From: Syntrophus sp. (in: bacteria)
Lineage (GTDB): Bacteria; Desulfobacterota; Syntrophia; Syntrophales; UBA8958
Length of the DNA: 64,000 nucleotides
Reading direction: 5' to 3'
Assembly (NCBI GenBank): GCA_025355725.1
Contig: JANXZC010000109.1
Coordinates: 38,340 to 102,339 of the forward strand
Shown here in pieces: positions 2,370 through 39,950 of the stretch; position 1 is the first letter of the stretch, and every line of letters begins with the position of its first letter. Below the pieces are notes generated by a model. The model saw only the letters and a list, made by a program, of their open reading frames with translations. It did not search any database and was not told the origin of the DNA. The translations under genes were made by a program, and so were the position numbers.

Positions 2370-3612
2370 GCCTTAAAACCTCCGAAGGTTTGATTTTGGA
2401 GATGTGTCTGCCCAAGAGCGCCCCTGTCAGGCCCCCGATGATCACAGAGAGAAGCAGGGCAAAGGCCGCCAGAGACCAGGGAATGTGTACGGGAAGGCGC
2501 AGGGTTTTAAAGAGCGGGTCGCCACCGCCAGGGAGAAAATGGGGGGTCGGGCTCATCTCCCAGGGAATGGGGATGTTGACGGTCATGAAACCCAGGGCGA
2601 AGGCGGCCGCCTGGGCGATCAGTAGGCCCAGGACCCCGGCGGCAAACCCCTGGATGACCGATTCCGCCAGGAGCTGCATCGTGACGTTACGATGGGTCCA
2701 GCCCACAGCCTTCATAACGCCTATCTCTCTGGCCCGTTCCGCGACGTTTCCCGCCATGGTCTTGAAGGCAACTAGAATGGCAATAATCATGGCAATAATT
2801 GAGGCGGCCAGAGTAAATTTATCCGACAGGGCAAAGAGGCTGCCCAGAAGCTTCAGAAATGACTCCGGGGTGGCAATGGTGGCTTTTTCCCCGAGAATGC
2901 CCTTGATAGCTGCGGCAACGGTTGTGATGCGATCCTGATCGGCCCTGATAAAGAGGAGGTTGACATCTTCTCCGGCAAAGGGGGAAACGGACTGCAAATT
3001 TTTGGATGCCGCCGCGATAGCCTGCGCCTCCGCCAGCGGCAGGTAGAGATTGGCCACGGCGATTTTAGAGGCATGGGACGCATCGATCAGGCCGACAACA
3101 GGATAAGACCTTCCAGCCACGTTAACATGGTCTCCAAGCCGGATGCCGAATTGACGGGCGTAGGCCGCTTCAACAAGGACCTCCGGTTTCCCGGTTTCGA
3201 GATAACGCCCCTCCGTGATAAAGTTTTTAAGAATCGATGGTCCGACCGGATTATTTTGTTCGATTCCCAGCACGATCCAGGCCCGGTTCGGGTCGAAGAT
3301 CCACAGGAGAACGGCCTTACCCATCCCCCTGATGCCCGGTATCGCTTTGATATCTTCTATTTCTTCTTCACCGATCGTCACGGCGGAGCAGGGGAAGACG
3401 GCCCCCACAAGCTCCTGGGGCACGTTTCCGGGTCTCTGCACCGTAATGTCGGCCCCGACCTCTTTCAGCGGCGCGCGCGCCGCCTCGTGGTAAGCCAGGG
3501 ACAGGGCGTTAAGGATAACAAAGAGGGCGATACCGATGGATAGGCCGAGAATGGAAATGATTGTTCTTCGCTTTTGATGGGTAAGTTCCTTGAAAACGTA
3601 ACGCAGATTCAT
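2362..3612 (-). CDS. ABC transporter permease, FtsX/MacB-LolC-like
   Basis: Same architecture as 48..1286, with REIGVMKAVGWT. It overlaps the ATPase start by 8 nt and the upstream gene's stop by 4 nt. Confidence 0.85.
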   Translation of the reverse strand: MNLRYVFKELTHQKRRTIISILGLSIGIALFVILNALSLAYHEAARAPLKEVGADITVQRPGNVPQELVGAVFPCSAVTIGEEEIEDIKAIPGIRGMGKAVLLWIFDPNRAWIVLGIEQNNPVGPSILKNFITEGRYLETGKPEVLVEAAYARQFGIRLGDHVNVAGRSYPVVGLIDASHASKIAVANLYLPLAEAQAIAAASKNLQSVSPFAGEDVNLLFIRADQDRITTVAAAIKGILGEKATIATPESFLKLLGSLFALSDKFTLAASIIAMIIAILVAFKTMAGNVAERAREIGVMKAVGWTHRNVTMQLLAESVIQGFAAGVLGLLIAQAAAFALGFMTVNIPIPWEMSPTPHFLPGGGDPLFKTLRLPVHIPWSLAAFALLLSVIIGGLTGALLGRHISKIKPSEVLRHE

Positions 3613-11966: not shown

Positions 11967-12491
11967 TCAGGAAACATTATCCGCTATTGCCAGGGTGGCC
12001 TCTGCCGATCGCAACCATTCTTTGATCTGTTGCCGCTGTGGCATCGTTCCTACGGAGACAACCTTGCCGTTGATGATCAGGACCGGCACTCCCATAACCC
12101 CGTAGCGGGTAATCTCCCGGAGATCGTCCACATGGATCAATTCACCGGGAAGATGCATCTCAGCCAGGGCTTCCCGGACGTTTCTTTCCAACTGGGTGCA
12201 CCGGGCGCATCCCGGTCCCAGGACAATAATCTGCAAACGGTCAGGTGGCGGATCCTCCACCTCCTGGCCGAGAAATCTCCTAAACTCCCGGACCAAGGCA
12301 AGGCCATAGGCATCTTCGGCACGGTGGGGAATGTAATTCTGCTTAGCCGCCCGCAGCAGGATTTCCTGACCGATTTCCACATCCGAGCACTCCGAAAAAT
12401 CCTTCGCCATGACCTCCATAATCCCCTTAAGGCCGATAATACCTACAAGATTATTATTGATTCTGAGTTGAATAACATTTCCTTCCGTCAT
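11967..12491 (-). CDS. Thioredoxin_3-domain protein with an ~95-aa N-terminal extension of unknown function
   Basis: The C-terminal IIVLGPGCARC...VPVLIINGKVVSVGTMP is a paralog of 11635..11868. The N-terminal half has no motif I recognise. Confidence 0.7.
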   Translation of the reverse strand: MTEGNVIQLRINNNLVGIIGLKGIMEVMAKDFSECSDVEIGQEILLRAAKQNYIPHRAEDAYGLALVREFRRFLGQEVEDPPPDRLQIIVLGPGCARCTQLERNVREALAEMHLPGELIHVDDLREITRYGVMGVPVLIINGKVVSVGTMPQRQQIKEWLRSAEATLAIADNVS

Positions 12492-33124: not shown

Positions 33125-34786
33125 TTAGTCTTTGAAGATTGCCCCCGTACTGGCCGATGTCACCAGTTTGGCGTAGCGGGCCAGATAACCGGTGGTGATG
33201 GAGGGCGCTTTGGGTTTCAGCGCCTTCTTTCGTTTTTTCAGCTCCTCCGGCGACACTTTGAGGGTGATCTTTTTCTTCGGGATATCGATGGCTATGATGT
33301 CGCCTTCCCGAACCAATGCGATAGGTCCCCCTTCCGCCGCTTCCGGTGAGATGTGGCCGATCGCGGCGCCGCGGGTGCCGCCGCTGAAGCGGCCGTCCGT
33401 GAGCAGTGCCACGGTGGTATCCAGACCCATTCCGGCGATGGCCGAGGTCGGGGCCAGCATTTCCCGCATCCCCGGGCCGCCTTTGGGACCTTCGTAACGG
33501 ATCACCACGATGTCCCCGGCCTTGATCTTGCCGCCGAGGATCGCCTTAATGGCGTCGTCTTCAGAATCAAAGACCCGGGCGATAGACTCGTTGACCAGCA
33601 TATTTACCGCTACGGCGGATTGTTTGACAACGCAGCCGTCAGGGGCCAGATTCCCCTTGAGGATGGCGATGCCCCCTTCCTTGGTGTAGGGATTCTTGAG
33701 GGTCCGGATAACGTCATCATCGAGGACGATGGCGGATTTGATATTTTCCCCCACTGTTTTTCCCGTAACCGTTTTGGCCTTTTCATCAATGACACCCAGG
33801 GAGCTGATACGCTTCATAACCGCCTGGATCCCTCCCGCCGCGTCCAGGTCTTCGAGGTGATGCGCCCCCGCCGGGCTGAGTTTGCAGAGATTCGGGGTCT
33901 TTTTGCTGATCTCGTTGAAGATGTCCAGCTCCAGCTTGATGCCTGCCTCGTGGGCAATGGCCGGAATATGCAGGACTGTATTGGTCGAGCAACCCAGGGC
34001 CATATCCACGGCAATAGCGTTTTTAAAGGCCGCGAGGGTGGCGATATCCCTTGGTTTTGTTCCCTTTTTGAGGAGATCCATGATCTTCATGCCCGCCTCT
34101 TTGGCCATGCGCCTGCGGGCCGCGTTGACGGCGAGAACCGTCCCGTTTCCCGGCAGGCCGAGACCAAGGGCCTCGGTGACGCAGTTCATGGAATTGGCCG
34201 TGTACATGCCGGAACAGGACCCACAACCGGGGCAGGCGCAATCCTCGACGGCGTCAAGTTCCCGCTGGGACATACTGCCGGCTTTTACCTTGCCCACCCC
34301 CTCGAAGACGCTGATGAGGTCGATGGTCTTTCCCTTGAGCTTTCCTGCCAGCATGGGACCGCCGCTAATAACTATAGTGGGAATATTGAGCCGCAGGGCC
34401 GCCATGAGCATCCCCGGAATGATCTTGTCACAGTTGGTAACCATCACCAGGGCGTCGAAGGGATGTGCCATAGCCATCGATTCGATGGAATCGGCGATAA
34501 GTTCCCTGCTGGCCAGGGAGTATTTCATCCCTGTGTGCCCCATGGCAATCCCATCACAGATACCGATAACGGGAAATTCTACGGGTGTCCCGCCGGCAAT
34601 GCGAATACCAGCCTTGACGTCATCGGTGATGATCCCCAGATGGATATGTCCGGGAACAATTTCGTTGGCCGAGTTGACAACGCCGATAAGTGGGCGATTA
34701 ATTTCTTCGTCCGTATAACCCATGGCCTTGAACAAGGAGCGGTGGGGCGCCCTCTCCAGGCCTTTCTTCATCAAATCGCTGCGCAT
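33125..34786 (-). CDS. ilvD: Dihydroxy-acid dehydratase
   Basis: 553 aa with [16 protein letters not shown] and [11 protein letters not shown]. Confidence 0.95.
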
Positions 34787-34905: not shown

Positions 34906-35952
34906 TTATTTTTTTCTGCGTTCAGGACGAAGGGCCCTCAGGGTGGCGCCGGCCTGCCACATCTCGCTGTTCTTGATGACGTCCAGTTCGGCCTGCAGCT
35001 TTTCCCGGTAATCGGGGGCGCTGTTGACCCTGAGAACGATCTCCGTCTCCTTCCCGGCGGCGACACGATCATAGAGTTCCGTAAAGACGGGAACGACGGC
35101 GTCGCGGAAACGGTTCTTCCAATCCAGGGCTCCCCGCTGGGCCGTGGTGCTGCAGTTGGCATACATCCAGTCCATGCCGTTCTGGGCCACCAGGGGCATG
35201 AGGCTCTGGGTAAGCTCCTCGACGGTTTCGTTGAAGGCCTCGCTGGGGCTGTGCCCCCGCTTGCGCAGCTCATTATACTGTGCTTCGAGAACCCCGGCCA
35301 GGCAGCCCATAAGGACGCCTCGTTCCCCGGTCAGATCACTGTAAACCTCTTTTTCAAAGGTCGTAGGGAAGAGATAGCCCGAACCGATGGCCACACCCGT
35401 CGCCAGGGCCCGCTCCATAGCCCTCCCAGTGGCGTCCTGGAAGACGGCGTAACTGGAATTGATACCGCTGCCGGCCAGGAAGTTGTCCCGGACGGTCCGT
35501 CCCGCGCCTTTGGGGGCCACGAGGATTACGTCGATATCCTTAGGGGGAATGACACCGGTCTGCTCTTTATAGACGATGGAAAAACCGTGAGAAAAATAAA
35601 GGGCCTTGCCCGCCGTCAGGTTCGGTTTCAGTTCCTCCCACATGGCCTTCTGGCCCGCATCGGACTGGAGATACTGGATAATGGTGCCCCGTTTGGCCGC
35701 CTCCATGGGCGAAAAAAGGGTCTTCCCGGGGACAAATCCCTCTTCGATGGCCTTGTTCCAGTTGAAATCCCCCTCGCCGACGATGACGTTGATCCCGTTG
35801 TCTTTCATGTTCAGGGCCTGTCCCCGTCCCTGAACACCGTAACCGATTACGGCCACGATCTCGTCCTTGAGGACTGCCCGGGCCTTGTCCAGAGTAAATT
35901 CTTCCGAGGTGATGACATCTTCGACGACGCCACCGATATTGAGTTGCGACAT
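34906..35952 (-). CDS. ilvC: Ketol-acid reductoisomerase (class I)
   Basis: VIGYGVQGRGQALNMKDNG NADP motif; 348 aa. Confidence 0.95.
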   Translation of the reverse strand: MSQLNIGGVVEDVITSEEFTLDKARAVLKDEIVAVIGYGVQGRGQALNMKDNGINVIVGEGDFNWNKAIEEGFVPGKTLFSPMEAAKRGTIIQYLQSDAGQKAMWEELKPNLTAGKALYFSHGFSIVYKEQTGVIPPKDIDVILVAPKGAGRTVRDNFLAGSGINSSYAVFQDATGRAMERALATGVAIGSGYLFPTTFEKEVYSDLTGERGVLMGCLAGVLEAQYNELRKRGHSPSEAFNETVEELTQSLMPLVAQNGMDWMYANCSTTAQRGALDWKNRFRDAVVPVFTELYDRVAAGKETEIVLRVNSAPDYREKLQAELDVIKNSEMWQAGATLRALRPERRKK

Positions 35953-35985: not shown

Positions 35986-36474
35986 TTAGTCTATTTGTCT
36001 TTCCAGAGATACAATCCCGGTTCTGGCCATATCATCAATACCCAAAGGTTTCAAGCTCGCCACGGCCTTCTCGATAATTGCCCGGTCACCGGTAATCTCC
36101 ATGACGCAGTGGTCGCCGTTCATCGTAATTACCCGCCCATTGAACGTATCGATGATCAAGGCAAGGTGCCCCTTGTTCGTATCCGAAAGCTTCATGCGGA
36201 CAAGCATCATCTCCCGGGATACGGCTTCCACTTTTGTCAGATCCGTCACTTTGTGGACGTCAATAAGTCTGATGAGCTGTTTTTCAATCTTCCCTATCGT
36301 TGCCTTATCCTGGATCGTCGTCAGGATGATCTTGGAATAGGCGGGGTCCAGGGTGGCGTCCACACAAAGGGTTTCAATATTGTAGCCCCGACCGCCGAGG
36401 ACGCCGGAAACCCTTGCCAGGACGTCGGGTTTGTTGCTGACGAGTAACGCCAGGGTATATTCTTTTTTCTCCAT
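35986..36474 (-). CDS. ilvN: Acetolactate synthase small (regulatory) subunit
   Basis: ACT domain LALLVSNKPDVLARVSGVLGGRGYNIETL; 162 aa. Confidence 0.92.
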   Translation of the reverse strand: MEKKEYTLALLVSNKPDVLARVSGVLGGRGYNIETLCVDATLDPAYSKIILTTIQDKATIGKIEKQLIRLIDVHKVTDLTKVEAVSREMMLVRMKLSDTNKGHLALIIDTFNGRVITMNGDHCVMEITGDRAIIEKAVASLKPLGIDDMARTGIVSLERQID

Positions 36475-36501: not shown

Positions 36502-38199
36502 TTAGTTTGCCATCTCCCTGCCCAGGGCCATTTCATGGATGGGGCCGCCGGGCCGCACCATGGGATAGACGCACTCCTCCCGGGATACGCGGAAGTCCAT
36601 GAGGACCGGTCCGGGCGCGGCAAGTCCTTTTTGCAGCACCGCCTCCACCTCACCGGGCTTCGTGGCCCGCAGGCCCATCCACCCGTATGCGTCCGCAAGC
36701 TTCAGAAAGTCGGGCTGGTAAGTCATGTCCGTACTGGAATAACGTTTGCCGTAGAAAAGCTGCTGCCACTGCCGAACCATGCCCAGGTAGCCGTTGTTGA
36801 GAAGGACGATCTTTACGGGGATATTGTCCTGGATGGCCGTGGCCATCTCCTGGATGTTCATCTGGATGCTCCCGTCGCCGGCGATATCTATCACCAGTTT
36901 GTCCGGAAAGGCAATCTTCGCTCCGAGGGCCGCGGGTAATCCGTATCCCATGGTCCCCAGGCCACCTGAAGACAAAAATGTGTTGGGCTCGTCGTATCCG
37001 TAGAACTGGGCTGCCCACATCTGGTTCTGGCCGACTTCGGTGGTAATGATAGCGTCGCCCTTCGTCAACTTAAAGAGGGTCTCGATGACGAACTGGGGCT
37101 TGATCTCCGTGTCGCTATGGCAGTAGCTCAGGGGATTCTCTTTTTTCCAGGCGTCTATCTGGTCTAACCACTCCTTTCGCTGGTCATCGGTGACACTGAA
37201 GTCCTTCTGCTCCAGGAGGGCGTTGAAGCTCTGGAGGGCGCTCTTGCAATCGCTGACGATAGGCACGTCCACCATGACGTTTTTGTTGATGGAGGAGGCA
37301 TCGATGTCCACATGGACGATCTTGGCATTGGGAGCGAAATGATCGATCTTGCCGGTAACCCGGTCGTCAAACCGCATGCCGATGGCGATCAGGAGATCAC
37401 AGGTGCTGATGGCCATGTTGGCATAATAAGTACCGTGCATTCCCGGCATGCCCAGCCAGAGAGGATCCGAGGCTGGAAACGCCCCGAGGCCCATAAGGGT
37501 AGAGGTGACGGGCATCCTGGTCCGTCGGGCCAACTGCCGTAGTTCCTCCGAAGCGCCACCGAGGATTACTCCGCCGCCGGAGAGAATCAGCGGCTTTTTA
37601 GCTTCAGCAATAAGATCCATGACATAGAATGCCTTTTTCGAGGCGGGACGGGTGATTTCCTCCTCGATATTTTTCGGCGGCCGAGGTGTATATTCAGTCA
37701 TGGCGGCCATGACATCCTTCGGCAAATCTATCAGCACCGGACCGGGTCGTCCCGACCGGGCGATATGGAAGGCCTCGTGGATCGTCTTGGCGACCTCCTC
37801 CACCCGTTTGACCAGGAAATTGTGCTTTGTACAGGGGCGGGTGATACCGATGATATCTACCTCCTGGAAGGCGTCCGTCCCGATTAGATGGGTGGGGACC
37901 TGCCCGGTCAGAACGACGATGGGGATGGAATCCAAATAGGCATTGGCAATCCCCGTTACCGTGTTGGAAGCCCCGGGTCCGGAAGTGACCAGGGCCACCC
38001 CGACCTTGCCGGAGGCACGGGCGAATCCGTCCGCCGCATGGACGGCCCCCTGTTCATGACGGACCAGGATATGGCGAATCTCGGCCTTGTACAGTTCATC
38101 ATAGATATCCAGAAGCACGCCTCCCGGATAGCCAAAGATTGTGTGGATCCCCTCCTCCTTTAACACCTTGATAAGTATTTCTGCTCCTTTTAGTTGCAC
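36502..38199 (-). CDS. ilvB: Acetolactate synthase large subunit
   Basis: TPP enzyme motifs (GYPGG, GDGSIQMNIQE...NNGYLGMV). Start is the GTG at 38199 (GGGAGG 8 nt upstream). The ORF-track start at 38208 abuts the SD. Confidence 0.93.
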   Translation of the reverse strand: MQLKGAEILIKVLKEEGIHTIFGYPGGVLLDIYDELYKAEIRHILVRHEQGAVHAADGFARASGKVGVALVTSGPGASNTVTGIANAYLDSIPIVVLTGQVPTHLIGTDAFQEVDIIGITRPCTKHNFLVKRVEEVAKTIHEAFHIARSGRPGPVLIDLPKDVMAAMTEYTPRPPKNIEEEITRPASKKAFYVMDLIAEAKKPLILSGGGVILGGASEELRQLARRTRMPVTSTLMGLGAFPASDPLWLGMPGMHGTYYANMAISTCDLLIAIGMRFDDRVTGKIDHFAPNAKIVHVDIDASSINKNVMVDVPIVSDCKSALQSFNALLEQKDFSVTDDQRKEWLDQIDAWKKENPLSYCHSDTEIKPQFVIETLFKLTKGDAIITTEVGQNQMWAAQFYGYDEPNTFLSSGGLGTMGYGLPAALGAKIAFPDKLVIDIAGDGSIQMNIQEMATAIQDNIPVKIVLLNNGYLGMVRQWQQLFYGKRYSSTDMTYQPDFLKLADAYGWMGLRATKPGEVEAVLQKGLAAPGPVLMDFRVSREECVYPMVRPGGPIHEMALGREMAN

Positions 38200-38240
38200 T
38201 GTAAGCACCTCCCTTATGGATGTTTATAATTTTTTAAACA

Positions 38241-38273
38241 ATAAAAAAGCCGCTATCTTTGGAGATGCGGCTT
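38241..38273 (-). terminator. Intrinsic terminator 2 of the ilv leader
   Basis: The minus-strand RNA reads AAGCCGC-aucuccaaagaua-GCGGCUU followed by UUUUAU. Confidence 0.6.
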
Positions 38274-38280
38274 CTTGAAA

Positions 38281-38313
38281 TTAAAAAAGCCGCGGGTTTT
38301 GGGGCCCGCGGCT
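38281..38313 (-). terminator. Intrinsic terminator 1 of the ilv leader (attenuator)
   Basis: The minus-strand RNA reads AGCCGCGGG-ccccaaaa-CCCGCGGCU followed by UUUUUAA. It begins 19 nt after the leader-peptide stop. Confidence 0.7.
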
Positions 38314-38331
38314 CTTGTTTTTAAAGGTTGT

Positions 38332-38409
38332 TTAAAAACACCGAGCAGCAGTCCCCCTCGGTACGATGACTACAACGACGCTGCCCAGTACAATGACCTT
38401 GTTTTTCAT
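38332..38409 (-). CDS. ilv operon leader peptide (25 aa, Val/Ile/Leu-rich)
   Basis: Hand translation gives MKNKVIVLGSVVVVIVPRGTAARCF*. Ten of 12 consecutive residues are branched-chain. It is followed by two terminators and then ilvB. Confidence 0.65.
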   Translation of the reverse strand: MKNKVIVLGSVVVVIVPRGTAARCF

Positions 38410-38449
38410 TTGGCTGTCTTCCATGTCCTTCAAGTTGAAAAGTGGCCGC

Positions 38450-38478
38450 ACCGTACGAAAATAATTGACCCTTGTCAA
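38450..38478 (-). promoter_or_regulatory. Sigma70-type promoter candidate for the ilv leader
   Basis: The minus strand has TTGACA, a 17-nt spacer and TACGGT, about 35 nt upstream of the leader ATG. Confidence 0.45.
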
Positions 38479-38534: not shown

Positions 38535-39950
38535 TCAACATGCAAGCCGGTCATCGCCATTGCCTTCTCCTTTGTCCCGGGAAAGACTTTCTCCCATAAC
38601 CTCCCGCCAGTAAGGGTCGTTTCTCATCTGGGCAAGTTTTCTCTGTAACTGCCGCACCGTAATGCCCAGGATATCGGCGATTTGCCGCCGGTCGCCGCCG
38701 GTGTTCATGAGGACATAGGCGACCTGGGTCTCGTCGTTTTCCTTGAGGCTGCACAGGTGTCGGGCAAAAAGAGACTGCCTGGTGGGCTGTTTCCCCAAAT
38801 TGTGGGGCAGGATCACCCCTCCCTCGCCGAGGAGCACGGCATTCTCGACGACTTGGGCCAGTTCCCGGACATTACCCCGATATTCCCGACGTATAAGGAC
38901 GTCCATAGCCTCGGGACTGAAGCCGCTTATCTCTTTGCCATGCCGGGAATTTGCCTCCCGGAGAAAATGGGCAGACAGCAGGGCGATGTCTCCCTCCCTT
39001 TCCTGCAGCGGCGGGATATGGACATGGGCGGATTTCAGGCGATAGAGGAGATCCAGGCGAAAGCGGCCCTCCTGACAGGCCTTGTCCAGATCCATATTGG
39101 TCGCTGAAATAACGCGTACATCGACCTTCAAAGTCTTAGAACCGCCCAGGGGGGTAAAGGATTTTTCCTCGAGTGCCCGGAGGAGCTTTGCCTGAAGACC
39201 AAAAGGCAGCTCTCCGATCTCATCAAGGAACAATGTTCCGCCATTAGCCTGCTCAAAGAAACCACGATAACTTCCTTCGGCACCGGTGAAGGCGCCCCGG
39301 ACATGGCCGAAGAACTGGGTCTCGAACATGGTGGTCGGAATGGCGCAGACGTTGACGGCAATAAAGGGCCCTGCGGGAGCAGGACCGGTCTGATGAATCC
39401 CCCGGGCCATGAGTTCCTTCCCCGTCCCCGATTCACCGGTAATCAGGACGGGATTGCCGCTCCGGGCCATGACCTGGGCGTAAGCAAGGAGGGATTTCAT
39501 CAGCGGGCATTGAGTAATAATTCCGGCAAAGGCAGCGGGAATATCTCCACCCCCCTCACGACGGGCGGCGGATAATCCCTTGAGAAGACCTTTACGTTCG
39601 TAGGCCCGCTCAATGGTCAGGAACAGCAGTTCGTTGTCCACCGGTTTTACGAGATAATCGTAGGCCCCCAAGCGGATGGCCCGCACCGTTGCCGGGATAT
39701 CGTCCACGGCCGTCAGGATGATGAATTCCGTGTAGGGCTTGAAAGGTTTCGCCGCTTCCAGGACCTGCATGCCGTCCATTTCCGGCATCAGCAGATCGAG
39801 GAGCACGATATCATAATCCCGCTCCCGGATTTTCCGGATGGCCTCCTGACCGTTATCGCAGATATCCACATCACGAATGCCCCGCCATTTCAAAAGGCGT
39901 TGGACCGATGTGAGAGATATTTCCTCGTCATCCACGATCAGGATCTTCAT
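38535..39950 (-). CDS. Sigma54-dependent response regulator (NtrC family: REC-AAA+-Fis HTH)
   Basis: REC domain MKILIVDDEE...LLDLLMPEMDG. AAA+ domain with GESGTGKE and GAFTGA. C-terminal HTH DRRQIADILGITVRQLQRKL. Confidence 0.93.
   Translation of the reverse strand: MKILIVDDEEISLTSVQRLLKWRGIRDVDICDNGQEAIRKIRERDYDIVLLDLLMPEMDGMQVLEAAKPFKPYTEFIILTAVDDIPATVRAIRLGAYDYLVKPVDNELLFLTIERAYERKGLLKGLSAARREGGGDIPAAFAGIITQCPLMKSLLAYAQVMARSGNPVLITGESGTGKELMARGIHQTGPAPAGPFIAVNVCAIPTTMFETQFFGHVRGAFTGAEGSYRGFFEQANGGTLFLDEIGELPFGLQAKLLRALEEKSFTPLGGSKTLKVDVRVISATNMDLDKACQEGRFRLDLLYRLKSAHVHIPPLQEREGDIALLSAHFLREANSRHGKEISGFSPEAMDVLIRREYRGNVRELAQVVENAVLLGEGGVILPHNLGKQPTRQSLFARHLCSLKENDETQVAYVLMNTGGDRRQIADILGITVRQLQRKLAQMRNDPYWREVMGESLSRDKGEGNGDDRLAC

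Follow-up and report, generated by a model that had tools for sequence, protein, structure and literature searches.

How do bacteria of the order Syntrophales, slow-growing and energy-limited syntrophs almost without gene-regulation data, control the ilvBNCD operon for the synthesis of branched-chain amino acids? The question is raised by a stretch of 64,000 nucleotides (nt) of Syntrophus sp. (assembly GCA_025355725.1, contig JANXZC010000109.1, positions 38,340 to 102,339), further called the window, whose source is a 98% complete metagenome-assembled genome (MAG) of this order. On its minus strand, as the sequence reads, a predicted promoter, a 25-codon open reading frame (ORF), two intrinsic terminators (T1 and T2) and then the genes ilvB-ilvN-ilvC-ilvD follow one another (Table 1; all positions are those of the window). 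An earlier interpretation made from the letters and without database searches, the sequence-only reading, had suggested translation-coupled attenuation of the operon. From our analysis the leader is very probably a ribosome-mediated leader-peptide transcription attenuator of ilvBNCD, which would sense charged tRNA-Val and, to a lesser extent, tRNA-Ile and tRNA-Leu; the conserved ORF, an antiterminator that excludes T1 and the starts of RNA contigs of Syntrophus buswellii all support the earlier suggestion.

Conservation of the leader upstream of ilvB

We took the best ilvB locus from 41 relatives, 29 of which had readable upstream sequence, and in all 29 of these a TTGACA promoter, a Val- or Ile-rich short ORF and an intrinsic terminator were found. 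The leaders fall into two classes. Class A, the type of the window, is characterized by a Val run, the element GGGGACYGCUGCUC, a T1 of the form GAGCCGCGGGCCCC...CCCGCGGCUUUU and a T2 of the form AAGCCGC...GCGGCUUUU, and it ranges over the own family of the window's genome and at least five other families; class B is described further below. A scan with the class A pattern over one genome per species (185,579 species) gave 103 loci, belonging to MAGs labelled Syntrophales or 'delta proteobacterium', to S. buswellii DM-2 and, as one exception, to a contig labelled Candidatus Omnitrophota (L057; JBFZAV010000109.1). The latter is very short (3567 nt) and its leader (MFLKVFKSGIIQTLNYVLVVVVLKGSAALYL) is typical of the Smithella type, so that mis-binning of a Smithella contig is the probable explanation, rather than transfer.

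Pattern hits and the synteny set were combined into an alignment (A1) of 104 distinct class A leaders. Of these, 101 are followed by an ilvB-like ORF in the same orientation, and the remaining three are cut by contig ends. The small ORF, whose conservation the sequence-only reading had made a test of its proposal, is ATG-initiated in 98 of the 104 and starts with GTG in 3 more. Folding of the 251-nt leader of the window gives -82 kcal/mol, whereas dinucleotide shuffles of it give -62.7 +/- 4.4 (z = -4.4; 0 of 200 as good), and since about 100 other species have the whole arrangement before ilvB as well, the features of the leader exceed what chance would give.

Alternative helices of the leader RNA

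The leader RNA holds six pairing segments, numbered in the order of transcription, of which 3:4 make T1 and 5:6 make T2. It had been proposed to fold the region in search of mutually exclusive terminator and antiterminator structures, and such structures are indeed predicted: segment 2, which overlaps the end of the ORF, pairs with segment 3 in an antiterminator of -27.3 kcal/mol, as compared with -21.5 kcal/mol for T1 (means over 102 leaders -29.0 and -21.0). The 2:3 pairing consists of 4 + 4 + 4 base pairs (bp) with two single mismatches between them, and the A/U-rich hairpin stacks on top. Two further helices have to be considered, T2 itself (-16.3 kcal/mol in the window, mean -15.7 over the same 102 leaders) and a 4:5 hairpin (-12.7 kcal/mol, mean -13.7), together with a protector helix in which segment 1 pairs with segment 2 (-20.7 kcal/mol; the mean over 104 leaders, -18.9, comes from a slightly different folding frame, in which the leader of the window has -22.5).

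In none of the sequences tested is the antiterminator less stable than T1, and all 102 leaders that were folded give a 2:3 hairpin closed from end to end. It also closes, with -20.6 to -31.0 kcal/mol, in all five class A leaders that were found by ilvB synteny only, and therefore is not an artefact of ascertainment. In most lineages the spacer that separates segments 2 and 3 folds into a hairpin, whose sequence differs between lineages (mean z -2.5 over 87 distinct sequences, z < -2 for 50 of them). Column by column, 90% of the cells of 2:3 are paired, against 42-58% with the partner shifted by 1-3 columns. The variable pair between segment 2 and segment 3 is U-G in 44 leaders, C-G in 36 and U-A in 23, while C-A is not seen at all (Fisher p = 1e-5, uncorrected for phylogeny); the 23 leaders with A at this segment 3 base always have U opposite to it in the antiterminator, and in 9 of these 23 the same A makes an A-C mismatch in T1.

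Both terminators are recovered as consensus structure by RNAalifold, and the T1 sequence occurs only once in its own genome. The tandem double terminator, pointed out earlier as unusual, is real and kept in 103 of the 104 class A leaders. The lower stem of T2 (GCCGC/GCGGC), the A-tract before it and its U-tract are nearly invariant, although they lie outside the search pattern, the upper stem and loop vary, and the spacing from T1 to T2 is held within 14-24 nt.

Evidence for translation of the leader ORF

The ORF of the window encodes 7 Val, 3 Ile and 1 Leu among its 25 codons, has a candidate Shine-Dalgarno sequence GGAAGA 7-9 nt 5' of its start, and a second, in-frame ATG is present at 38424. 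The ORF of the 98 ATG-initiated leaders crosses the conserved element, and in all leaders the stop codon comes 7-22 nt before AGCCGC. The N-terminal part of the peptide varies freely across clades, and despite this the codon phase of segment 2 is constant in 98 of 104 leaders. Val, Ile and Leu take 5-10 (mode 8) of the 10 codons preceding segment 2, and the Val run is conserved with a period of 3, its G and U being fixed and the third base variable. GUA makes up 71% of Val codons in these 10 codons over the 104 leaders, as against 10% in 7 neighbouring genes of the window; the use of rare codons is typical of attenuator leaders, though pairing of the RNA may be a further constraint on these bases.

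The conserved peptide tail GTAAR(C/F)(F/L) was considered as a possible arrest peptide and rejected, as Smithella-type leaders encode TGSAALYL from nearly the same nucleotides. The tail reads GTAARCF in the window and GSAALYL in Smithella, and its third codon positions are as fixed as the first and second, therefore its conservation is one of nucleotides and not of peptide.

Stepwise folding and the proposed switch

Stepwise folds of the nascent transcript were computed with 30 nt masked as the footprint of a ribosome, a size that is assumed. If the masked ribosome stands on Val codon 13, the antiterminator has formed in full before segment 4 comes out of the polymerase, and it is still the minimum free energy (MFE) structure when the 3' end in the polymerase stands on the U-tract of T1; masked stalls at codons 13-14 all give the antiterminator. 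When the mask is placed at UAA instead, it hides the A/U hairpin together with half of segment 2, and T1 folds upon emerging. When no ribosome is masked, the fold joins segment 1 (38388..38368) to segment 2, and here too T1 is formed.

We infer from these folds the geometry of the ribosome and the kinetic order of a switch of the following kind. Transcription would begin about 35 nt upstream of the 25-codon ORF. When valine is plentiful, the ribosome would reach UAA and cover segment 2 (GGGGACUGCUGCUC) and the A/U hairpin, T1 would form as it emerges, RNA polymerase would terminate at the U-tract, and those polymerases that escape T1 would encounter T2. When valine is scarce, the ribosome would stall in GUC-GUU-GUA-GUC-AUC-GUA, occupying segment 1 and leaving segment 2 free to pair with segment 3 beneath the A/U hairpin, so that the long antiterminator would be there before segment 4 is transcribed and the polymerase would read on into ilvB. 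In the absence of translation segment 1 would sequester segment 2, and T1 would form again.

The starts of RNA contigs are consistent with this scheme. The MAG itself is fully covered by DNA runs only, and the metatranscriptome contigs that touch the leader belong to relatives, with 1-9 differences, and then run into unlike sequence; the leader region is thus transcribed somewhere. Three metatranscriptome runs supplied contigs for S. buswellii DM-2 (L101). Their ends, at 3464, 3458 and 3458, fall about 20 nt past the -10 predicted there, and the leader ATG (3443) follows after another 15-20 nt; two of the three contigs continue for more than 800 nt across both terminators into ilvB. These ends place the transcription start upstream of the leader and show that read-through transcripts exist; a start downstream of the hairpins, by which the attenuation proposal could have fallen, is not what is seen. 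Runs X66-X68 and X49 were rejected as RNA evidence for S. buswellii, being DNA-like, and served as control: the DNA-like contigs cross the same point unbroken.

Several points weigh against this reading. Once fully exposed, after the polymerase has moved on, T1 beats the antiterminator by about 2.6 kcal/mol; T1 being favoured at equilibrium and T2 being more stable than 4:5, read-through has to depend on kinetics. The RNA basis consists of assembled contigs of relatives, which speak to start and read-through and not to premature termination. For the 1:2 helix the comparative support is weak: of 104 leaders, 78-89 have segment 2 paired to upstream sequence in their MFE fold, but the helix is barely better than in shuffled controls (mean z only -0.9). 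As 99 of the 104 aligned leaders were gathered by a pattern that fixes most columns of segments 2, 3 and 4, the invariance of these segments is in part one of ascertainment. When the tested columns are left out of the tree of the leaders, it gives only 2-3 well-supported independent contrasts per informative pair, therefore sign tests or phylogenetically corrected tests cannot reach significance. The -10 hexamer, TACGGT, is poor as well.

A possible relay between the two terminators, or a fail-safe terminator

The least secure part of the scheme concerns T2. We infer from the folds and the alignment a possible relay by which one ribosome stall would relieve T1 and T2 in series, through 2:3 and then 4:5: the right arm of T1 with its U-tract (segment 4), freed by 2:3, would capture the A-rich left arm of T2 (segment 5), and T2 would be delayed or prevented by 4:5. 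We give this relay about even chances, since 4:5 could be a by-product, T2 is more stable, and the covariation probably stands for very few events. If true, it would provide a very tight OFF state, with two chances of termination, without lowering the ON state, and the wiring would have been kept in more than 100 species of Syntrophales through sequence-identical stems of T1 and T2.

A real possibility, if not the probable one, is that the attenuator is genuine and T2 an independent fail-safe terminator for leakage of T1, itself not relieved. Segments 3 and 5 are near-identical and so are segments 4 and 6; the shared arms make 4:5 pairing automatically possible, so that its complementarity requires no separate selection and might be a by-product of the common GCCGC/GCGGC sequence, for example after an old local duplication. 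The energies agree with such a role, 5:6 being more stable than 4:5 both in the window and on average, and the phylogenetically independent support for covariation in 4:5 is too thin to carry a test. One same-genus relative (L009, G010:C106) is the sole class A leader without T2 and functions so. On the other side, a constitutive second terminator would cap the induced expression, and the lower stem of T2 stays identical to that of T1 over about 100 species while the upper stem drifts and the distance between the two terminators remains constrained. Column 188 of the alignment, in segment 5, is paired with column 165 in the T1 tail in 92 of 104 leaders (U-A 50, G-C 26, U-G 11, G-U 5), and with its T2 partner in only 62 of 104. 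Stepwise folding with the masked stall also passes through the combined 2:3 and 4:5 state, which is the MFE structure from the emergence of segment 5 until the right arm of T2 is exposed. On these grounds we propose the relay, with the fail-safe terminator as its main rival.

In L009 a G-C pair of T1 has become A-U by a compensated change, and 35 nt past T1 comes the Shine-Dalgarno sequence of ilvB. This leader is a natural single-terminator control for the relay idea.

Other readings of the locus

The nucleotides of segment 2 and of T1 are conserved even at third codon positions, which indicates a constraint on the RNA and might suit a sensor other than the translating ribosome, such as a protein, a tRNA or a small-molecule-binding RNA, to which the ORF would be incidental. 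We consider this hardly probable: no T-box, riboswitch or leader family of Rfam reaches even E = 0.1 in the region, the ORF remains open, with segment 2 in constant phase behind a variable N-terminus, and the Val run has both a period-3 conservation and a strong bias to rare GUA. The amino-acid specificity also fits the operon, and a second leader in the same genome has Ile codons before an Ile-pathway gene.

Upstream ORFs (uORFs) of other systems can act on translation or on stability of the mRNA, and the chance that this one affects ilvB mainly in such a way, by re-initiation or by masking of the Shine-Dalgarno sequence, appears very small, as two canonical G+C-rich hairpins, each with U6, stand between the uORF and ilvB, the ilvB Shine-Dalgarno sequence lies about 30 nt past T2 and in no conserved helix in the folds, and a distance of 120 nt, too long for coupling, separates the uORF stop from the start of ilvB. 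Least credible is that T1 and T2 merely terminate the upstream sigma-54 response-regulator gene, which does share the strand and has its end 220 nt before T1, with ilvB under its own promoter and the small ORF meaningless, because the sequence 5' of the -35 differs among same-genus relatives while promoter, leader and terminators travel with ilvB, because the roughly 30-45 nt from T2 to the ilvB Shine-Dalgarno sequence and start hold no promoter-like site, and because the RNA contigs of S. buswellii begin between promoter and leader and run into ilvB. We thus keep to the attenuator.

Anatomy of the locus

The elements from which the sequence-only reading had set out were found largely as it described them. 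The promoter TTGACA-17 nt-TACGGT is present on the minus strand, and so is the Val/Ile-rich ORF, in which 10 of the 12 residues VIVLGSVVVVIV are Val, Ile or Leu. The first hairpin with its U-tract also stands (AGCCGCGGG-ccccaaaa-CCCGCGGCU, then U6; 38316..38285 with 12 pairs in the terminator scan), except that its distance from the stop codon is 18 nt and not 19. The second one, AAGCCGC-N13-GCGGCUU, is followed by U6, and the downstream operon, named as ilvBNCD, is established by NCBIfam matches to all four genes. The T1 palindrome scores as a terminator on the plus strand too (38288..38313, tail CTTGTTTTTA), where no plus-strand gene ends.

Transcription is predicted to start at about 38443. 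A promoter scan does not list this promoter, because its -10 matches fewer than 4 of 6 bases; TTGACA at a comparable distance 5' of the leader was seen in all class A and class B relatives that were read. The start of ilvB in the mechanical ORF list, GTG 38208, sits within the Shine-Dalgarno sequence GGGAGG, and we place the start, judging by that sequence, probably at GTG 38199 (MQLKG...), 8 nt past GGGAGG; the equivalent codon of relatives is ATG, TTG or GTG. The two genes upstream of the leader encode a sigma-54 response regulator (38535..39950) and a PAS histidine kinase, according to NCBIfam.

Table 1. Elements of the ilvB leader and the genes that follow it, with positions in the window
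Feature	Position	Strand	Sequence or description	Basis
Predicted sigma-70 promoter	38450..38478	-	TTGACA 38478..38473, 17-nt spacer, TACGGT 38455..38450	
Leader peptide ORF	38332..38409	-	ATG 38409 to TAA 38334..38332, 25 codons: MKNKVIVLGSVVVVIVPRGTAARCF	
Segment 1	38368..38388	-	CUGGGCAGCGUCGUUGUAGUC; predicted to pair with segment 2 when no ribosome is present (1:2 protector)	
Regulatory codon run	38362..38379	-	GUC GUU GUA GUC AUC GUA (Val Val Val Val Ile Val)	sequence
Segment 2	38343..38356	-	GGGGACUGCUGCUC; 5' arm of the antiterminator, overlaps leader codons 18-23 (R G T A A R)	
A/U-rich hairpin	38315..38340	-	UGUUUUUAAA-caacc-UUUAAAAACA; caps the antiterminator, includes the leader stop codon	
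Segment 3	38301..38314	-	GAGCCGCGGGCCCC; T1 left arm and first four loop bases, 3' arm of the antiterminator	
Terminator T1	38283..38316	-	12-bp stem AAGAGCCGCGGG/CCCGCGGCUUUU, 8-nt loop, U6 38288..38283	
4:5 hairpin	38267..38296	-	GCGGCUUUUU (T1 right arm and U-tract) with AAGAAGCCGC (T2 left arm), 10 bp	
Terminator T2	38243..38276	-	AAGAAGCCGCAUCU-ccaa-AGAUaGCGGCUUUUU, U6 38248..38243	
ilvB Shine-Dalgarno sequence	38213..38208	-	GGGAGG	sequence
ilvB	36502..38213	-	acetolactate synthase large subunit	NCBIfam TIGR00118, 818 bits
ilvN	35986..36474	-		NCBIfam TIGR00119
ilvC	34906..35952	-		NCBIfam TIGR00465
ilvD	33125..34786	-		NCBIfam TIGR00110

Class B leaders and a second leader in the genome

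Class B was seen upstream of ilvB in other families of Syntrophales (L016, L022-L030), and its pattern matches 33 of the 339 genomes of the order. It differs from class A by Ile codons in place of the Val run, by another conserved RNA (GGNUGAUGGUUUG ... AACCGUUACC-loop-GGUAACGGUUUU), in which GGNUGAUGGUUUG is the conserved element and the UGA stop of the uORF lies inside it, and by a single terminator, formed by AACCGUUACC and GGUAACGGUUUU; this leader family also appears to be uncatalogued.

Five genomes (G023:C8, G024:C1, G033:C1, G037:C51 and G038:C22) carry a second paralogue resembling acetohydroxyacid synthase (AHAS), with 41-45% identity to the IlvB of the window, on the same strand and 1-2.5 kb to the upstream side of the ilvB orthologue. 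A class B leader was confirmed for four of these five, G037 not being among those read.

A genome-wide scan for leader peptides in the genome of the window gave 39 candidates, of which only the ilvB leader and one more, before cimA, are convincing, and the rest look like noise. The cimA leader lies outside the window (genome G000, contig C12, minus strand, about 12090-12320). It comprises TTGACA-17-TATGGG, a uORF MYYRNLNTISGIIIIGIIRPENTGA in which Ile takes 7 of 9 codons, the element GGAGCCUGAUCGUGGUUUAG and a terminator AAAUCCGUUAUCAGG..CCUGGUAGCGGAUUUUUUUU, and ends 20 nt before the gene of a 528-aa citramalate synthase (TIGR00977, 754 bits). A Val leader on ilvBNCD together with an Ile leader on citramalate synthase points to amino-acid-specific control of two branches. 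Class B and cimA leaders share with class A the TTGACA promoter, a uORF with a run of branched-chain amino acid (BCAA) codons, a conserved antiterminator element into which the end of the uORF extends and, before a gene of the BCAA pathway, an intrinsic terminator.

Comparison with known systems

The proposed switch follows the classical logic of the trp, his, leu and ilv leaders. E. coli ivbL-ilvBN (AHAS I) is the textbook case of leader-peptide attenuation of ilvB, and the Syntrophales leader resembles it in having a short ORF with a Val run (ivbL ...AAVVVVRVVVVVGNAP), an intrinsic terminator directly before ilvB and, as we propose, stalling of the ribosome set against formation of the terminator. 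A by-eye comparison with E. coli ivbL (NC_000913.3) revealed no shared element beyond the Val run: peptide tail, antiterminator and terminator (E. coli AAACCCCGCCGG..CCGGGCGGGGUUUUU) are without detectable similarity, and where E. coli has one terminator the Syntrophales leader has two with shared arms, before an operon which is ilvBNCD.

By analogy, the closest precedent for a relay over several helices is the his leader of Salmonella and E. coli, where A:B, C:D and E:F alternate with B:C and D:E and a single terminator stands at the end. Both systems have more than four segments, and as in the his leader one ribosome position would propagate here through successive alternative helices to a terminator; unlike that leader, the chain proposed here (1:2, 3:4, 5:6 versus 2:3, 4:5) would link two complete terminators.

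An Rfam search with all families and permissive filters gave, at E <= 10, chance-level matches only, and no model was significant for the leader; the best matches on the correct strand were Trp_leader (16.1 bits, gathering 41) and Thr_leader (15.7 bits, gathering 55), with E of 3.6-5.5. The comparison took in the Leu, His, Thr and Trp leaders, ilvB-OMG, ilvH, T-box, the ppGpp riboswitch and the release 15 models. Searches of full-text literature found no leader peptide or attenuator for ilv in Syntrophus, Syntrophales or Deltaproteobacteria, although Lopatovskaya et al. 2010 (cited in PMC4833913) may list delta-proteobacterial cases; this agrees with the view of the sequence-only reading that the mechanism is undocumented for ilv in this lineage.

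The general model of leader-peptide attenuation has been described (PMC1183508), and outside the enterobacteria leader-peptide attenuation was shown for Corynebacterium ilvBNC (PMC11857589, PMC10272879), the ilvB-OMG and Leptospira ilvB motifs were argued to be uORF attenuators (PMC10272879), and uORF attenuation of ilvB was argued to be widespread across phyla (PMC10272879). Corynebacterium ilvBNC/ilvB-II, ilvB-OMG and Leptospira ilvB share with our leader a conserved RNA before ilvB, a BCAA-rich uORF and terminator/antiterminator alternatives; they belong to other lineages and have other sequences, and in the portions of these papers at hand no double terminator is described for them (PMC10272879; PMC11857589).

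Our data extend leader-peptide attenuation of branched-chain amino acid synthesis to the Syntrophales (Desulfobacterota), and offer an RNA family of about 100 species, absent from Rfam, which can be used to annotate these genomes. If the relay is real, it would also demonstrate how attenuators cut leakiness without losing dynamic range, which may be of interest to engineers of RNA switches. Set beside the systems above, this is a known mechanism in an uncatalogued family essentially confined to Syntrophales, and the apparently interlocked double terminator is what distinguishes it.

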